From Verrucomicrobiales bacterium (GTDB taxonomy: Bacteria; Verrucomicrobiota; Verrucomicrobiia; Limisphaerales; J093): a stretch of 64,000 nt of DNA. Where the stretch lies: assembly GCA_037445715.1 (NCBI GenBank), contig JBBIJZ010000001.1:34364-98363 (forward strand), given 5' to 3'. Made by a program: the position numbers and the translations under genes. The notes beneath the pieces were generated by a model. The model was not told the DNA's origin and ran no database searches. It saw nothing but the letters and a program-made list of their open reading frames with translations. Below, in pieces: positions 5,529-44,099 of the stretch (the first letter of the stretch is position 1; each line of letters opens with the position of its first letter).

Positions 5529-6965
5529 ATGAGCACCGGTGAACGCGCGGGACGCCAGCCGCGGCGGGGCAGCCAGCGCCGCTCCCGGGCGGTGGTCAAG
5601 GCCGCGGGCCGGAGCGGACGGCTTTGGTGTGTGCTGACTTTGTCGGTCTTGCCCCTCCTGTCCGTGGCGCTCGGCGCTTCCGTGTTGGAGCTGGCCGCCC
5701 GCGGCGTCGTCGAGCACCGGCAGGGCGAGGCGGAACTGGTGTTTCGCCACCCCGATGGCCGACCCGCCGCGGGAGCGCGGGTGGAGGTGCGTCAGACCGG
5801 GCACGAGTTTCGGTTCGGCAACGTGTTTCGGCCCCGGCATTACACGAACGCGCTGTACCGGGCGCGCTTCCAGGAGCTGTTCAACTTCGTCTCGCTGCTC
5901 GAGTTCAACTGGGGCCAGTACGAGCCGGAAGAGGGCCGGCCGCGTCTGGCGGAGCGGCTGGACTTCATCAACGGCTGGTGTCGCGAGTCGGGCCTGACCC
6001 GCTTTTACGGCCACATGCTGGTGTGGACCCCGCAACGCCGCGACCGGTCCGGCTCGCTCCTGCCCGAGTGGCTGTTCCAATACCCGCCGCCCGGGCGCGA
6101 TGACAAGCTGCGCCAGCGCATCGAGCGCGAAGTGCGGGATTACCGCACGGTGGACCTGGTCTGGGACGTGGTCAACGAGGCCATCCACTGCCGTCGCTGG
6201 GGGGCGTGGGACAAGGACGGATGGGGGGACGAGCCCATCCCGGAGGTCGTGCCCTACGTGAGCCAGGCCCTGGCCTGGGCGCACGCGGCCAATCCAAAGG
6301 CCCGCTTGTTGATCAACGATTACCGGGTCATTCCCCGCGGGCGGTACCGGGACCGTTACGTGGACCTGATCCGCCGGCTCCGGGAGGGCGGTGCGCCGCT
6401 CCACGCCGTGGGTATCCAGGCGCATGAGCCCGACCGAGGGGCTTACTGGTTTTCACCGGAGGAAATCTGGGAGGCCTGCGAGGTCTTCGGTACCCGCACC
6501 GGTCTGCCGATCTACTTCACCGAGTTCTGGTACACCTCCGATCCCGCCCGCCGGATCACCGGCACCTACCGCCAGGGGAATTGGGATCCGGAACGGCAGG
6601 CCGAGGCCATTGAGGAATTTTACCGGGTCGCCTTCGGCCACCCGGCGGTCGAGGCCATCATCTATTTCGGTCTGACCGACGCCGACCCGCCGGCGTTTCC
6701 CCGGGTGTGCCTGCTGGACGAACATTACCGGCCCAAGCCGGCCTGGGTGCGGCTGCGACGGCTGCTGCACGAGGAATGGAACACGCACCTGACGACCGCG
6801 GCCTCTGCCGAGGGGCGCGTGCGGTTCAGGGGCTTCTACGGCCGCTACGAGGTCCGCGTGGCGGACAACACGCGACAGTGGCGGTTCACCTTCACCCTGG
6901 GCCGCGGCCGACCGGCCCGTCAGGAATTCATCCTCGACCCCACGCCGGCCCCCACCGGGCCTTGA
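5529..6965 (+). CDS. Glycoside hydrolase family 10-like protein (putative endo-beta-1,4-xylanase) with N-terminal signal/anchor
   Basis: Motifs FRFGN, WDVVNEA (acid/base Glu), GIQAHE, YFTEFW (nucleophile Glu). The start was moved to ATG 5529 (MSTGERAG...hydrophobic LWCVLTLSVLPLLSVALG) because the track ORF start at 5181 overlaps maf. Confidence 0.6.
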   Translation: MSTGERAGRQPRRGSQRRSRAVVKAAGRSGRLWCVLTLSVLPLLSVALGASVLELAARGVVEHRQGEAELVFRHPDGRPAAGARVEVRQTGHEFRFGNVFRPRHYTNALYRARFQELFNFVSLLEFNWGQYEPEEGRPRLAERLDFINGWCRESGLTRFYGHMLVWTPQRRDRSGSLLPEWLFQYPPPGRDDKLRQRIEREVRDYRTVDLVWDVVNEAIHCRRWGAWDKDGWGDEPIPEVVPYVSQALAWAHAANPKARLLINDYRVIPRGRYRDRYVDLIRRLREGGAPLHAVGIQAHEPDRGAYWFSPEEIWEACEVFGTRTGLPIYFTEFWYTSDPARRITGTYRQGNWDPERQAEAIEEFYRVAFGHPAVEAIIYFGLTDADPPAFPRVCLLDEHYRPKPAWVRLRRLLHEEWNTHLTTAASAEGRVRFRGFYGRYEVRVADNTRQWRFTFTLGRGRPARQEFILDPTPAPTGP

Positions 6966-7103
6966 TCTGAGAACGCCGGCCGGGACCGCGCTGCGGCGCG
7001 GCCGCCGGGAGGACCAGGCACGGCACTGGGGCAGCGGCGCCCGACCGGGGGTGCTTTTCCTGCATTTCCCAAGCGGCCGGTGTCGGTGTATCAAGACCCC
7101 ACC

Positions 7104-8573
7104 ATGAAACGCTTGCTCCACCTCGGCCGGGTGCTTCCGGCCGCGCTGGTCCTGGCCGGGTCTTGCCTCCAGCCGGCGGTCGCCGCGCCGCCGCCCAACA
7201 TTGTCTTCATTCTCGCCGACGATCTGGGCATCAACGACCTGGCCGGCTACGGCCGGCGCGACCATCACACGCCGCACCTGGACCGGCTGGCGGCGGCCGG
7301 CACGCGCTTCACCTCGGCCTACTGCGCGCTGCCCATCTGCTCGCCCTCGCGCGCGGCCATCCTGACCGGCCGCCAGCCGGCGCGGTTGCACCTGACCACC
7401 TACCTGCCCGGCCGGCCGGATTGCGCCTCCCAGAAGCTGCGCCATCCGGTCATCCGCCAGGAACTGCCCCTGGAGGAAAAGACCCTCGCCGAACACCTCA
7501 AGGCCGCCGGTTACGCCACCGCCTGCATCGGCAAATGGCACCTGGGCGGCCAGGGCTTCGGCCCGCGCGAGCAGGGCTTTGACTTCTATCACGCCGGCCA
7601 GGCCGTCACCCCACCGTCGGAGACCGAGGGCGGCAAAGGCGAATACGACCTGACCGCGCAGGCGGAGAAATTCATCGAGGCCCACCGCGATCGCCCGTTT
7701 TTCCTCTACCTGGCCCACAACTCGCCCCACATCCCTTACTCCGCCCGGACCGATCTGGTGGCCAGGAACCGCGACGCCTTCGAGCCGGTGTACGCGGCCC
7801 TCATCGAGACCCTGGACGACACCGTCGGCCGGTTGCTGGCGCGACTCGACGCGCTGGGGCTGCGCACCAACACGCTGGTCATCTTCACCTCGGACAACGG
7901 CGGCCTGCACGTGCCCGAAGGACCGCACCCCGCCATCACCCACAACACCCCCTTCCGCGCCGGCAAGGGGTTCCTCTACGAAGGCGGCCTGCGCGTGCCG
8001 CTCATTGTCCGCTGGCCCGGCCGCGTGCCGGCGGGCCGGGTGGTGGACGCCCCGGTGGTGAACACCGACTGGCTGCCCACCCTGCTCGAGCTGGCCGGCC
8101 GGCCCGTGCCGGCGGACCTCGATGGCGTGAGCCTGGCCGCGCTGCTCACCGGCCGCGGCCCGGCACCCCGCCGGCCGCTGTTCTGGCACTTCCCCCACTA
8201 CACCAACCAGGGCGGCCGGCCCGGCGGCGCGGTGCGCGAGGGCGATTGGAAGCTCATCGAACACTACGAAGACGGTCGGGTCGAACTGTTCAACCTCGCG
8301 CAAGACCTTGGCGAAACGAACAACCTGGCCGCGCGCGAACCGGACCGGGTCCACGAACTGCGCACCCGCCTGGCGGCCTGGCGCGAAGCAATGGGCGCGC
8401 AGACCAACACGCCCAATCCGGGCTTCGACCCCGCGCGGCACCGGCCACTGTATGTGGACCTGGACGTGTCGCGCTACGATCCACGCACCGCCAGGGCCGA
8501 CGAGCGGGCGCGGGTCTTGGAATGGCGCCGGCGGATGAACGCCGCCGTGGCCCGCCCGCCCGTGGGGCGATGA
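7104..8573 (+). CDS. Arylsulfatase-A-family sulfatase (formylglycine-dependent), secreted
   Basis: NIVFILADDLG, the CSPSRAAILTG (C-x-P-x-R) formylglycine motif, GKWHLG, and signal peptide MKRLLHLGRVLPAALVLAGSCLQPAVA. Confidence 0.9.
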   Translation: MKRLLHLGRVLPAALVLAGSCLQPAVAAPPPNIVFILADDLGINDLAGYGRRDHHTPHLDRLAAAGTRFTSAYCALPICSPSRAAILTGRQPARLHLTTYLPGRPDCASQKLRHPVIRQELPLEEKTLAEHLKAAGYATACIGKWHLGGQGFGPREQGFDFYHAGQAVTPPSETEGGKGEYDLTAQAEKFIEAHRDRPFFLYLAHNSPHIPYSARTDLVARNRDAFEPVYAALIETLDDTVGRLLARLDALGLRTNTLVIFTSDNGGLHVPEGPHPAITHNTPFRAGKGFLYEGGLRVPLIVRWPGRVPAGRVVDAPVVNTDWLPTLLELAGRPVPADLDGVSLAALLTGRGPAPRRPLFWHFPHYTNQGGRPGGAVREGDWKLIEHYEDGRVELFNLAQDLGETNNLAAREPDRVHELRTRLAAWREAMGAQTNTPNPGFDPARHRPLYVDLDVSRYDPRTARADERARVLEWRRRMNAAVARPPVGR

Positions 8574-8669
8574 GCAGGGAGCAAGGCCCCGTGCCGGGCC
8601 GGTGGCGCCGGTTTCGCGGTTGACGAGTTGCCGCCCCCCCCGCAACGTCACACCCTTTAATTGCGGGCG

Positions 8670-10832
8670 ATGAAGACACTTCTGTTCGTTTGCACCGGCA
8701 ACATTTGTCGCAGCCCCATGGCCGAGGGCCTGCTGCGCCATTTGACCCGTGAGCGCGGGGGGTACCAGGCCTTTTCGGCCGGCGTGGGCGCGGTCGAGGG
8801 CCAGGCCCCCAGCCCGGAAGCCGTCCGGGCGATGGCCGAGCTGGGCATTGACATCTCCGGCCAGCGCAGCCGGATGCTGACGCGCGAACTGGTTGCGCGG
8901 GCCGACTACATCTTCGCCATGACCCGCGGACACCTGGACACCATCCTGTTGCTCTACCCGGAAGCGGCGGAGAAAACCTTCCTGCTGCGCGAATTCGACA
9001 ACACCCTCGAGGAGTTCGAGAAAGACATCCCCGACCCCATTGGCGCGGGGATCGAGGCGTACCGCGAGTGCCGGGACAAACTGGAGCAGGGCATCGTGGC
9101 CCTGTTGCGGCACCTGGAGCAGACCGAGGCGCTCGCCACGCCGGCCCGGCCCCGCCCGCCCCGCCTGGTGCTGGGCGCGGACCACGCCGGATTCGCGCTC
9201 AAAGAGGCCGTCAAGGCGCACCTGACCGAACGCGGTTACGCGGTGGAAGACCTGGGCACGCACTCGACCGAATCCACGGATTACCCGGATTATGCCCGGG
9301 CCGTGGCGCGACGCGTGGCCGACGGCGAGGCGGATTTCGGCGTGTTGATCTGCTCGACGGGCATCGGGATGAGCATCGCCGCCAACAAGGTGCCCGGCGT
9401 GCGCGCGGCGCTGGTCTTCAACGAAGAGGGCGCCGCCCTGAGCCGCAGCCACAACGACGCGAACGTCCTGGCCCTGGGCGCCAGGTTCACCCCGCCCGAG
9501 GCGGCCGGCCCGATTCTGGACCGGTTTCTGAACACCGAGTTCGAGGGCGGCCGTCACGCCCGCCGCGTGAGCAAGCTCGAAGCGGACGCCGCGGCCTCGC
9601 CCCGCCTGGCCCGGGTGGACCCGGCCGTGGCCGCGGCCATCGAGCGCGAGCGCCGGCGCCAGCAGGAACACATCGAGTTGATCGCCTCGGAGAATTTCAC
9701 CAGCCCCGCCGTCATGGAGGCCCAGGGCAGCGTGCTCACCAACAAGTACGCCGAGGGTTACCCCCGCCGCCGCTGGTACGGCGGCTGCGAGCACGTGGAC
9801 GAGACCGAGCAACTGGCCCTGGACCGCGCCAAGCAGCTCTTCGGCGCCGAGCACGCCAACGTGCAACCCCACTCGGGCTCGAGCGCCAACATGGCCGTGT
9901 ACTTCGCCTTTCTCAAACCCGGCGACAAGCTGCTGACGATGGACCTCTGCCACGGCGGCCATCTCACCCACGGCCACCGCGCCAATTTCTCCGGCCGTTT
10001 CTTCGAGGTCGTCCATTACGGCGTGCGCCGCGACGACGAGCGGATTGACTACGACCAGCTTGCCGAACTGGCCCGCACCCACCGGCCGAAGATGATCACG
10101 GTGGGCGCCAGCGCCTACCCGCGCGTCATTGACTTCGAGCGCCTGGGCCGGATTGCCCGCGAGGTGGACGCGCTGCTGCTGGCGGACATCGCCCACATCG
10201 CCGGCCTGGTGGCCGCGGGCCTGCACCCCAGTCCGGTGCCGCACGCGGACTTCGTCACCACCACCACGCACAAGACCCTGCGCGGGCCGCGAGGCGGGTT
10301 GATCCTGTGCCGCGCGCAGTACGCCAGGGAGATTGACGCCCAGGTCTTCCCCGGCATCCAGGGCGGGCCGCTCGAGCACGTCATCGCCGCCAAGGCGGTA
10401 TGTTTCCAGGAGGCGCTCCAACCGGCCTTCCGCGAGTACCAGGCGCAGATCCTGGCCAACGCGCGGGCGCTGGCCGCCGGCCTGGCGCGCAACGGCTATC
10501 GGCTGGTCAGCGGCGGCACCGACAACCACCTCCTGCTGGTGGACGTGGGCGCGCGCGGGCTCACCGGCAAGGATTGCCAGGCCGCACTCGACGCCGCCGG
10601 CATCACGGTGAACAAAAACACCATCCCCTTCGAGACCCGCTCGCCCTTCCAGGCCAGCGGCATCCGCCTGGGCACCCCGGCCGTCACCACCCGCGGCATG
10701 AAGGAGCCGGAAATGGCGGCCATCGCCGACATGATCAGCGAGGTGCTCCTGGACCTGCAAAACCCCGAGCTGGCCCGCCAGGTCCGCCGCCGCGTGCTCG
10801 AGCTGACCGCGCGCTTCCCGCTGCCGTACTGA
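8670..10832 (+). CDS. glyA: Tri-domain fusion: LMW protein-tyrosine/arginine phosphatase + ribose-5-phosphate isomerase B + serine hydroxymethyltransferase
   Basis: One open frame with no stop. It contains [13 protein letters not shown] (LMW-PTP P-loop, ~8670-9120), [11 protein letters not shown]...[13 protein letters not shown] (RpiB, ~9162-9581), and [30 protein letters not shown]...[14 protein letters not shown] (SHMT PLP-Lys region, ~9606-10832). An in-frame TAA lies at 8658-8660. Confidence 0.85.
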
Positions 10833-11060
10833 CGGCGGGCTTGCGACGCCCCCAACGCCGCACGCGGCCGTACGTCCAAGGGGGGACGTGCGCTTGCCAA
10901 GGTTTTGCCAGAACGGCGCGCTGAGTTCGGCCGGCTTGCCGTCGCCGGGGCCGGAGCAGATGACCGGCGGGGAAACTGCCGACCGCGGCCGCCACGGGCA
11001 CGAGGGGCTGTGCTACCCGCACGGCTTGTCGCACGCGGGGTGGCCGGGTACGGTCGGCCC

Positions 11061-12014
11061 ATGCAAGCACTCACCCGACGCACCTTTTTGGGGCATTCCC
11101 TGGTCGGACTGGCCGCCGCGGGCGTCGCGCCGCGGGTCCTGGCCGTCGGTCGCAAAAGCCCCGCCCGTCATCCCATTTACCTGGGCGGTCCGGTGTTTGA
11201 CGCGCCCGACGACCCCGAGGCGCTGGCGCGGGCCCATCGCGCCCTGGGATACGCGGCGGCGTATTGCCCGAACGTGCCGTTGACCGACACCGCCCGGCTG
11301 CGCGCCGTGCGCGAGGCCTTCGCGCGGCACGGGGTGGTGCTGGCCGAGGTGGGGCGGTGGGTGAACCTGCTCGAGGCCGACCCGGCCAAACGCGCGGCCA
11401 ACCTGCGCACCGTCACGGAAGGCCTGGCGCTGGCCGAGGAAGTCGGCGCCCGCTGCTGCGTGGACATCGCCGGCTCCTTCAACGAGCAGGTCTGGTACGG
11501 CCCGCATCCGGACAACCTGTCCCGGCGCTTCTACGACGCCGTGGTCGAAAACGCCCGCAAGATCATTGACGCGGTCAAACCCCGTCGCGCGAAGTTCGCC
11601 TACGAAATGATGGGCTGGGCCTTGCCGGACAGCCCCGACGCCTGCCTGAAGTTGATCCGGGCCGTGGACCGCCCCGCCTTCGCGGTGCACCTGGACCCGT
11701 GCAACCTGATCAACTCCCCGAGCCGCTTCTACCAAAACACCGCGCTGATCGAGGAGTGCTTCGACAAGCTGGGCCGCTGGATCGTGAGCTGCCACGCCAA
11801 GGACCTGGCCTGGCAGGTCGAGATGAACGTGCACTTCCGCGAGGTCATCCCCGGCCTCGGCCAACTGGACTACGCGACCTACCTGCGCCGTCTGGCCGCG
11901 CTGCCCCAGCAGCCCCCGCTCATGCTCGAACACCTGGCCAACGCCGCCGAGTACCGTCAGGCCGCCGCGCACATCCGCCGGGTGGGCGAAGCGGCGGGCC
12001 TGCGCTTCGCATGA
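11061..12014 (+). CDS. Sugar phosphate isomerase/epimerase (xylose-isomerase-like TIM barrel) with Tat-type signal
   Basis: MQALTRRTFLGHSLVGLAAAGVAPRVLA twin-arginine leader. TIM-barrel family features (AEVGRW, CVDIAGSF, MLEHL). Confidence 0.7.
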   Translation: MQALTRRTFLGHSLVGLAAAGVAPRVLAVGRKSPARHPIYLGGPVFDAPDDPEALARAHRALGYAAAYCPNVPLTDTARLRAVREAFARHGVVLAEVGRWVNLLEADPAKRAANLRTVTEGLALAEEVGARCCVDIAGSFNEQVWYGPHPDNLSRRFYDAVVENARKIIDAVKPRRAKFAYEMMGWALPDSPDACLKLIRAVDRPAFAVHLDPCNLINSPSRFYQNTALIEECFDKLGRWIVSCHAKDLAWQVEMNVHFREVIPGLGQLDYATYLRRLAALPQQPPLMLEHLANAAEYRQAAAHIRRVGEAAGLRFA

Positions 12015-30522: not shown

Positions 30523-30598
<76 letters not shown>

Positions 30599-31882: not shown

Positions 31883-31958
31883 AGGGCGGTAGCTCAATTG
31901 GCAGAGTAGCGGTCTCCAAAACCGTCGGTTGGGGGTTCGAGTCCCTCCCGCCCTGCCA
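31883..31958 (+). tRNA. tRNA-Trp (anticodon CCA), CCA encoded
   Basis: Acceptor AGGGCGG/CCGCCCT, anticodon loop CTCCAAA, T-loop TTCGAGT. It sits in the canonical tuf-tRNA-Trp-secE position. Confidence 0.9.
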
Positions 31959-31962
31959 GCTT

Positions 31963-32052
31963 GGAGGGGTGGCAGAGTGGTCGAATGCGGCGGTCTTGAA
32001 AACCGTTGTGGGCTTGCACCCACCGGGGGTTCGAATCCCTCCCCCTCCGCCA
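31963..32052 (+). tRNA. tRNA-Ser (anticodon UGA), long variable arm, CCA encoded
   Basis: Acceptor GGAGGGG/CCCCTCC, D-arm GCA-GAGTGGTCGAA-TGC, anticodon loop CTTGAAA, long variable arm TGTGGGCTTGCACCCACCG, T-loop TTCGAAT. Confidence 0.85.
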
Positions 32053-43747: not shown

Positions 43748-44099
43748 TGGTGGAGGCGAGGGGAGTCGAACCCCTGTCCCTGAAACGAGCCCCAGCCGCG
43801 CCTACATGCTTAGCCGGAAGTTGTTCTCGGCGGCGGAAACGCCTTCCGGCCTGCTGTTCCGCCACCCAGCCAGCATGGGGTTGGTCGGGCGATTGCGCGC
43901 TGACTCCGCAACCGCCTCTGCCTGCTGTGGCGTTCCTCCGGCCTAGCAGGCGTCCGCCGGGGAACGTCGCGGTACTTTAGGCCGCGAGAGCCAACTCTTC
44001 GTTAGCCGTTTGGTTTGATGCGATGTTTTACGAGGCCCACGCATCGTCCTCGGCATGCCGCGTCTGGCAGACGTCCCAGGTCGAAACCAGTACGCCCCC
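43748..44099 (-). ncRNA. ssrA: tmRNA (SsrA), one-piece; tag reading frame GCU AAC GAA GAG UUG GCU CUC GCG GCC UAA = (A)ANEELALAA at 43977-44006
   Basis: Minus-strand 5' end GGGGGCGUACUGGUUUCGAC. The 3' end GGACAGGGGUUCGACUCCCCUCGCCUCCACCA is a tRNA-Ala-like T-arm and acceptor with a G3:U pair. The ALAA-ending tag ORF lies ~90 nt from the 5' end. Confidence 0.92.

Follow-up and report, generated by a model that had tools for sequence, protein, structure and literature searches.

A protein that combines serine hydroxymethyltransferase (SHMT), low-molecular-weight (LMW) phosphatase and RpiB (ribose 5-phosphate isomerase B) domains was described as an "unusual protein," Minf_1669, in the genome paper on Methylacidiphilum infernorum V4 (Hou et al. 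2008, Biol Direct 3:26; PMC2474590). We analyzed a gene with the same combination of domains in a 64-kb stretch of DNA (64,000 nucleotides; hereafter, the window) from a Verrucomicrobiales bacterium (GenBank assembly GCA_037445715.1, contig JBBIJZ010000001.1, positions 34,364 to 98,363 of the forward strand). Both hosts belong to the phylum Verrucomicrobiota, but M. infernorum is an acidophilic methanotroph of another order. The likeness to Minf_1669, including orthology and domain order, is drawn from the published description of that protein; no Methylacidiphilum name was found among the matches listed in either of our two homology searches.

The gene encodes an LMW protein tyrosine phosphatase (LMW-PTP), RpiB and SHMT in one frame, and its product is likely a single, translated-through, trifunctional housekeeping enzyme of 720 amino acids (aa). 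The fusion is not peculiar to this genome. It corresponds to the standard housekeeping rpiB/glyA gene of its lineage (Verrucomicrobiota, in the Planctomycetes-Verrucomicrobia-Chlamydiae, or PVC, group), and the three-domain architecture is both already known and the norm in Verrucomicrobiota genomes and metagenome-assembled genomes (MAGs).

The first-pass annotation of this DNA interpreted the gene as a three-way fusion of a kind not known to be described, trifunctional unless internal initiation still separates its products. The fusion is real, but its supposed novelty is not, as the combination had been reported by Hou et al. in 2008 (PMC2474590). That annotation also held that its novelty would disappear if the same architecture proved to be widely annotated. 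The architecture is indeed widespread in databases, under partial names: orthologues go by either "ribose 5-phosphate isomerase B" or "glycine hydroxymethyltransferase" alone. Such one-function labels can lead metabolic reconstructions of Verrucomicrobiota to count glyA or rpiB as absent by mistake. A full-text literature search returned no mention of the fusion beyond PMC2474590 and no biochemical study, and searches on the ywlE/ywlF/glyA gene order of Bacillus subtilis and on pyridoxal phosphate binding by LMW-PTPs likewise turned up nothing. As a discovery the fusion is minor, the architecture having been remarked on in 2008 and being present in hundreds of public genomes.

The gene and its three domains

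Coordinates are given in the numbering of the window, and amino acids are numbered from the ATG at 8670. The gene is composed of the following parts.

8670..10832, + strand: LMW-PTP–RpiB–SHMT fusion gene, a single open reading frame (ORF) of 720 aa, 78.5 kDa
8670..9119, + strand: LMW phosphatase domain, residues 1-150, with the P-loop C8-T-G-N-I12-C-R14-S15 and the general acid D122-P123
9120..9161, + strand: linker 1, residues 151-164
9162..9578, + strand: RpiB domain, residues 165-303, with catalytic D171/H172, C228, T230, H261/N262, R295/H296 and R299
9579..9605, + strand: linker 2, residues 304-312, EADAAASPR (followed by LAR, to residue 315)
9606..10829, + strand: SHMT domain, residues 313-720, with the pyridoxal phosphate (PLP) lysine K535; other SHMT active-site residues are Y360, E362, Y370, H431, D506, H509, T533, H534, R541 and R666

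All three domains matched their Pfam profiles over essentially the full profile length. LMWPc (PF01451) aligned to residues 5-146 (profile positions 2-144 of 144) with a score of 119 bits against a gathering cutoff of 23.2 and an E value of 2.6e-34; LacAB_rpiB aligned to residues 167-303 (positions 2-138 of 138; 194.6 bits; E = 9e-58); and SHMT (PF00464) aligned to residues 314-689 (positions 2-399 of 399) with 545 bits against a cutoff of 27 and an E value of 1e-163. The more specific NCBIfam models agreed with these assignments. The rpiB equivalog TIGR01120 scored 182.4 bits against a cutoff of 138.65 (positions 2-141 of 143), and the SHMT model NF000586 scored 631 bits against 335 (positions 1-403 of 404). 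The RpiB domain remained under the cutoffs of the NCBIfam models for LacA, LacB and actinobacterial Rpi.

In the raw sequence, an in-frame TAA (8658-8660) precedes the ORF and a TGA (10830-10832) closes it. The ORF listing gives 8661..10832 on the plus strand, or 723 aa if counted from the TTG at 8661. However, ATG 8670 is the supported start because the N terminus that it opens is conserved: homologues begin with MK(T)(I/L)LFVCTGN, with conservation of at least 90% for both M1 and K2. The GC content of third codon positions (GC3) is 0.87 to 0.93 and is even across all domains of the gene; the composition therefore gives no hint of a chimeric join. Long chance ORFs do occur in the DNA of the window, which is 67% GC. 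One of them, an antisense ORF of 1435 aa (6453..10760, − strand), covers the sulfatase gene upstream and most of the fusion gene as a GC-rich shadow ORF; it was rejected as a gene, having no Pfam match and overlapping two well-supported plus-strand genes. Three complete profile matches within one frame, in contrast, are not explicable by chance.

The first-pass annotation had thus read the gene itself correctly. The single frame from ATG 8670 to TGA 10832 behind the TAA at 8658 is seen in the sequence, the three complete enzymes follow one another in the order given, and the motifs quoted for them are all found in the translation. The short linkers are present as described (residues 151-164 and 304-312/315), and in-frame GTG codons exist at 9168 and at about 9567.

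Solved structures matched the domains one at a time. The best match of the SHMT domain in the PDB was SHMT 3pgy (E = 9.5e-169), and the best matches of the RpiB domain were RpiB 3ph3, 3he8 and 1o1x; none of the PDB chains among the matches listed spanned two or more domains. A structure prediction for the full chain, which had been proposed at first reading, was made with AlphaFold2 for the monomer. It consisted of three confident modules, with a mean predicted local distance difference test score (pLDDT) of 78 and a predicted template modeling score of 0.53. The linkers appeared disordered, with pLDDT below 50 for residues 154-161 and 305-311, and no confident packing between domains was predicted.

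Recurrence of the fusion and probable translation through its junctions

We next evaluated how common the fusion is. In a homology search over about 5.8 billion proteins, the 120 best matches listed were without exception 700-750 aa long, carried these three Pfam domains and were 72-96% identical, and they came from NCBI, JGI, ENA and Logan assemblies. The closest of them, a 96%-identical relative (P0001), was present on 8 contigs, and four of its locations trace to four different JGI samples. Like this relative, the database orthologues P0019, P0050 and P0091 are proteins of about 720 aa with the three domains in one frame. A second search used a more distant, 47%-identical protein (P0122) as the query. 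Three-domain proteins, including some from MAGs labeled Lentisphaerae, were again found among the matches listed; the exceptions were two shorter matches (619 and 640 aa) without the LMWPc domain.

A search for the PTP+RpiB+SHMT architecture, also suggested at first reading, was carried out as a scan of one genome per species and yielded at least 573 confirmed stretches. The best 80 of these were taken for a comparison of loci; they belong to Limisphaerales, Pedosphaera, Chthoniobacterales and other Verrucomicrobiia MAGs. A single tblastn segment bridged both junctions in 78 of the 80 loci. One locus (L073), in which a contig end cuts the gene, was left out, and 79 remained informative. One fully open frame ran over both junctions in 77 of these 79 species-level genomes.

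Two loci carried an interruption. In a Limisphaerales MAG (L069, JBGAPN010000164.1), a one-base frameshift at about 1475-1481 lies inside RpiB, just past GSDHAGF. The phosphatase is still in frame with the N terminus of RpiB, the frameshift is away from the domain boundary, and it is likely an assembly error or a pseudogene. In a Verrucomicrobiales MAG (L064, CBINJX010000058.1), an in-frame TAA was found in linker 2 (RRVEKL*KLGRGISNHSL, with the asterisk at the stop; GAGAAACTGTAAAAACTTGGC), the sole such case in the 79 loci. Sequencing error, recent fission and stop-codon read-through are all possible explanations of this stop. Four other loci (L007, L019, L021 and L035) are 71-74% identical copies of the fusion on contigs labeled Bifidobacteriaceae, Candidatus Acidoferrum and Akkermansia muciniphila. 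Errors in the binning or naming of the MAGs probably account for these labels.

The linkers are the most variable parts of the chain. Among the 79 sequences, the mean pairwise identity was 0.11 for linker 1, which ranges in length from 6 to 25 aa, and 0.16 for linker 2, which ranges from 5 to 34 aa. Nevertheless, linker 1 contained no stop in 1266 codons, where composition predicts 27.5 and the two alternative frames have 29 and 18. Linker 2 contained one stop in 784 codons (that of L064), as opposed to 20.2 expected and to 19 and 13 in the other frames. Pooled, the two linkers held 1 stop in 2050 codons versus about 48 expected, with the reservation that the linker sequences are related by descent and the stop counts are not fully independent. 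Because stops are nearly absent and the frame has been kept despite the high divergence, these data are strong evidence of selection for translatable linkers. They argue strongly, at the level of sequence comparison, that ribosomes read through both junctions, and they favor a trifunctional single polypeptide over separate products.

Separate PTP, RpiB and SHMT, alone or beside the full-length chain, could still arise from internal translation starts at the domain boundaries. In-frame GTG codons are found at 9168 (codon 167), 9567 (codon 300) and 9615 (codon 316), the first two of which were put forward as starts in the first-pass annotation. Furthermore, the lineage does not rely on Shine-Dalgarno sequences, with a motif at only 2 of the 79 true starts, and about ten Chthoniobacterales carry a Met at one column of linker 1 (MTSPQP) that is possibly a vestigial or live start of rpiB. 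This Met, in the context …P-MTSPQP…, was seen in L059-L067, L071 and L077. However, no start codon is fixed at any junction position across the family. Codon 167 is A, I, V, L or F among homologues, and V300 sits in the conserved C-terminal helix of RpiB (RHxRRVxK); neither GTG is conserved as a start, and the earlier proposal gained no positive support. Motifs resembling Shine-Dalgarno sequences occurred at the two junctions in 9 and 5 of the 79 sequences, equal to the 11% background inside SHMT. Finally, separate products would not preserve the frame or exclude stops over linkers this variable. We consider internal initiation unlikely.

Catalytic residues, phosphatase subtype and proposed function

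The residues expected to carry out catalysis are conserved in all three domains, as counted in the 79 aligned fusion sequences. The phosphatase domain has both a C-X5-R-(S/T) P-loop near the N terminus and a DP acid loop, and its C8, N11, R14, S15, D122 and P123 were invariant (79/79). In RpiB, D171, H172, C228, T/S230, H261, N262, R295, H296 and R299 were kept in 77-79 sequences, and in SHMT, K535 and the other active-site residues named above were kept in 78-79. The roles of these residues are established for the Escherichia coli enzymes. The corresponding positions are, in the numbering that we take to be that of E. coli RpiB, C66, Thr/Ser68, Asp9-His10, His99-Asn100, Arg133 and Arg137, and presumably, in E. 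coli SHMT, Tyr55, Glu57, Tyr65, His126, Asp200, His203, Arg235 and Arg363, with the lysine in T-T-T-H-K-T. All three modules are predicted to be catalytically competent. One relative (L037, JAKQDQ010000028.1) reads ALGADQ for the GADH motif of RpiB and Q-RHERC for G-RHERR at its C terminus. These changes fall on the positions of the catalytic His (H172) and Arg (R299), and the RpiB module of this relative may be degenerate.

Conservation is not even along the chain, with mean pairwise identities of 76% for SHMT but 58% for PTP and 56% for RpiB in the same 79 sequences. Together with a phosphatase that has no known substrate, and with the L037 protein substituted at catalytic positions of RpiB, this lower conservation would fit a chain in which one module, the phosphatase being the likeliest candidate, is without catalytic activity and acts as a scaffold or regulator. 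Pseudoenzymes, however, usually lose exactly such residues as the Cys, Arg, Ser and Asp that are invariant in all 79 phosphatase domains, and the catalytic residues of RpiB and SHMT are kept in 77-79 sequences. A dead module is thus very improbable.

The phosphatase domain was compared to LMW-PTP subtypes. Its top match among solved structures was the arginine phosphatase YwlE (PDB 4pic, 4kk3 and 1zgg; 100 bits and E = 1e-27 for 4pic), with which it has in common the CTGNxCRSPMAE context of the P-loop and the DP(F/I)G acid loop. The two differ at P-loop position 5, which is Thr in YwlE but Ile12 in the fusion protein. This Thr (Thr11 of YwlE) is critical for the preference for phosphoarginine, and most LMW-PTPs carry Ile at this position (PMC7772506, citing Fuhrmann et al. 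2013). Among the 79 homologues, position 5 was Ile in 37, Val in 36, Thr in 4 and Leu in 2, so that 73 of the 79 have Ile or Val. We do not class the domain as a YwlE-type arginine phosphatase, the Thr that marks this type being replaced by Ile12. Since Ile or Val stands in place of the Thr of YwlE, specificity for phosphotyrosine or small aryl phosphates is more likely on sequence grounds, and the intact C-X5-R-S P-loop and DP acid predict an active phosphatase.

A second candidate, a thioredoxin-coupled arsenate reductase (ArsC), was rejected: the NCBIfam models scored 56-58 bits against cutoffs of 174-215 and aligned to the N-terminal 90-100 or so residues only. One PDB entry, 4egs_A, was deposited as "Ribose 5-phosphate isomerase RpiB," yet its alignment is with the phosphatase domain (query residues 4-142), and its P-loop reads CTGNTCRSP. 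Its name looks like a carry-over from a PTP–rpiB gene neighborhood.

How a trifunctional chain might work can be outlined as follows; the advantage of the fusion, its oligomeric state and its enzymatic activity are what we infer. The protein would consist of three independently folding enzymes, an LMW-type cysteine phosphatase, RpiB and a PLP-dependent SHMT, strung on two flexible linkers. In both the RpiB and the SHMT families, active sites form at homodimer interfaces. Because the active sites of both enzymes span a dimer interface, the fusion protein would be at least a homodimer, with its modules paired with their twins. Fusion would fix a 1:1:1 stoichiometry of phosphatase, RpiB and SHMT. 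It may also permit joint regulation of the supply of ribose-5-phosphate (for phosphoribosyl pyrophosphate) and of glycine and one-carbon units, which are precursors of purines and thymidylate. The enzymes have no intermediate in common, and substrate channeling is therefore not expected.

The phosphatase might act in cis, either by stripping a regulatory phosphate from RpiB or SHMT or by handling a small phosphorylated ligand of theirs, although we regard this as a doubtful proposition. Candidate ligands would be a sugar phosphate or the SHMT cofactor PLP. Mammalian LMW-PTPs bind PLP tightly. If the phosphatase did act in cis, the fusion would amount to an enzyme of "nucleotide-precursor supply" that regulates itself and is confined to PVC bacteria, and there would be a functional reason for the widespread pairing of PTP and rpiB genes in other bacteria. 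The fusion is, in any case, a convenient handle for probing the persistent link between LMW phosphatases and RpiB.

Several points weigh against one translated-through trifunctional enzyme. The literature search found no experiment, whatever the organism, on the full-length product or on one of its three activities. The AlphaFold2 model is of a monomer and is silent on both dimer interfaces at once. The absence of Shine-Dalgarno motifs at the junctions has little power as a test of internal initiation because 77 of the 79 true starts are also without the motif. Lastly, the TAA between RpiB and SHMT in L064 may mean that a split form is tolerated.

Two further explanations concern why the fusion exists and whether it is real. 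For Minf_1669, it was suggested that the fusion is an adaptation to methylotrophy that links formaldehyde assimilation by the serine pathway with the pentose-phosphate pathway (Hou et al. 2008; PMC2474590). The fusion occurs, however, throughout Limisphaerales, Pedosphaera, Chthoniobacterales, marine Verrucomicrobiota and MAGs labeled Lentisphaerae. To our knowledge, most of these lineages are not methylotrophs. Moreover, RpiB and SHMT have no common intermediate, and we find a methylotrophic role hard to credit. That the fusion is an assembly or sequencing artifact, with a collapsed frameshift or a lost stop in the contig of the window, deserves practically no weight: single-base errors are seen in related MAGs (the frameshift of L069 and the nonsense codon of L064), but the same unbroken architecture recurs in hundreds of independent assemblies from varied projects and assemblers, with identities as low as about 47%, base composition stays even along the gene, and a cultured isolate with a finished genome was reported to carry the architecture (PMC2474590).

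Gene neighborhood, relatives and origin of the fusion

The genes next to the fusion and the RNA genes detected in the window are given below.

7080-8573, + strand: sulfatase, upstream neighbor of the fusion gene
10905-12014, + strand: xylose-isomerase-like TIM-barrel protein, downstream neighbor
11699/12010-13135, + strand: class I/II aminotransferase, second downstream neighbor
30523-30595, 31883-31955 and 31963-32049, + strand: three tRNA genes (Rfam)
43748-44099, − strand: transfer-messenger RNA (tmRNA) gene (Rfam, 150.7 bits)

The aminotransferase probably starts at ATG 12010 and not at GTG 11699, with a 4-nt overlap (ATGA) with the preceding stop, as in the 96%-identical relative. The pair of TIM-barrel and aminotransferase genes downstream is common to the window and this relative (P0001), whereas the upstream neighbor is Maf in the relative and a sulfatase in the window. 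No further rpiA, rpiB or glyA was found within the 64-kb window. A scan of positions 8300-11200 with promoter and terminator consensus sequences found none, the consensus probably being unsuited to this phylum. Likewise, an Rfam scan of the whole window revealed no riboswitch or leader near the fusion gene, and the idea of a ZTP, tetrahydrofolate or glycine riboswitch was dropped for lack of an Rfam match there.

More distant relatives were sought by scoring against 1.84 billion protein representatives at 50% identity. Three-domain clusters were few among these (P0121, P0122 and the divergent P0163), and they were accompanied by several clusters, about 555-577 aa long and confirmed with Pfam, that have the two domains RpiB–SHMT. 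P0163, together with P0271 and P0272 (683-702 aa; ENA and JGI), represents divergent three-domain relatives that are 40% identical to the fusion. Their RpiB domain is normal, but the SHMT part scores 130 bits and covers Pfam positions 1-353 of 399; they may be paralogues with an altered C-terminal function. Metagenomes also contain SHMT fused to other partners: P0140 (811 aa) joins dihydrofolate reductase, thymidylate kinase and SHMT, and P0186 (728 aa) joins a MeaB GTPase and SHMT.

A crude, bootstrapped neighbor-joining tree of SHMT domains recovered the core three-domain clade in 87 of 200 replicates and did not settle the placement of the two-domain forms. Because the tree left these forms unplaced, we make no claim on whether the fusion arose once or several times.

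Partial counterparts of the fusion are the two-domain RpiB–SHMT proteins of the sister PVC lineages Kiritimatiellia (P0124 and P0287) and Victivallales of the Lentisphaerota (P0123 and P0273). These proteins are 55-56% identical to the fusion and have the two domains in the same order in one ORF of about 560-577 aa, but they are without the phosphatase domain, and no phosphatase gene lies immediately upstream. The stand-alone SHMTs nearest to that of the fusion come from two groups. In Puniceicoccales, the enzyme is 65% identical, with neither rpiB nor PTP nearby. In Vicinamibacterales (Acidobacteriota), it shares 64% identity with the corresponding domain of the fusion, and a separate rpiB of 150 aa is located about 80 nt upstream of glyA, on the same strand and in the same order. 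There, rpiB and glyA have their own starts and stops, and the pair therefore represents the unfused state. The earlier view that the neighborhood of separate genes is ancient is borne out by this pair for rpiB and glyA. For Bacillus subtilis, we take the cluster to be ywlE–ywlF(rpiB)–ywlG–glyA, again of separate genes.

These comparisons suggest that the fusion probably arose by loss of stop codons in an old rpiB–glyA neighborhood. The stops and spacers of the pair would have been lost, and a PTP gene would have been added at the 5' end. The forms that run from separate rpiB→glyA by way of RpiB–SHMT to PTP–RpiB–SHMT, which might be used as a rare genomic character within PVC lineages, are a clean natural example of operon neighbors welded together.

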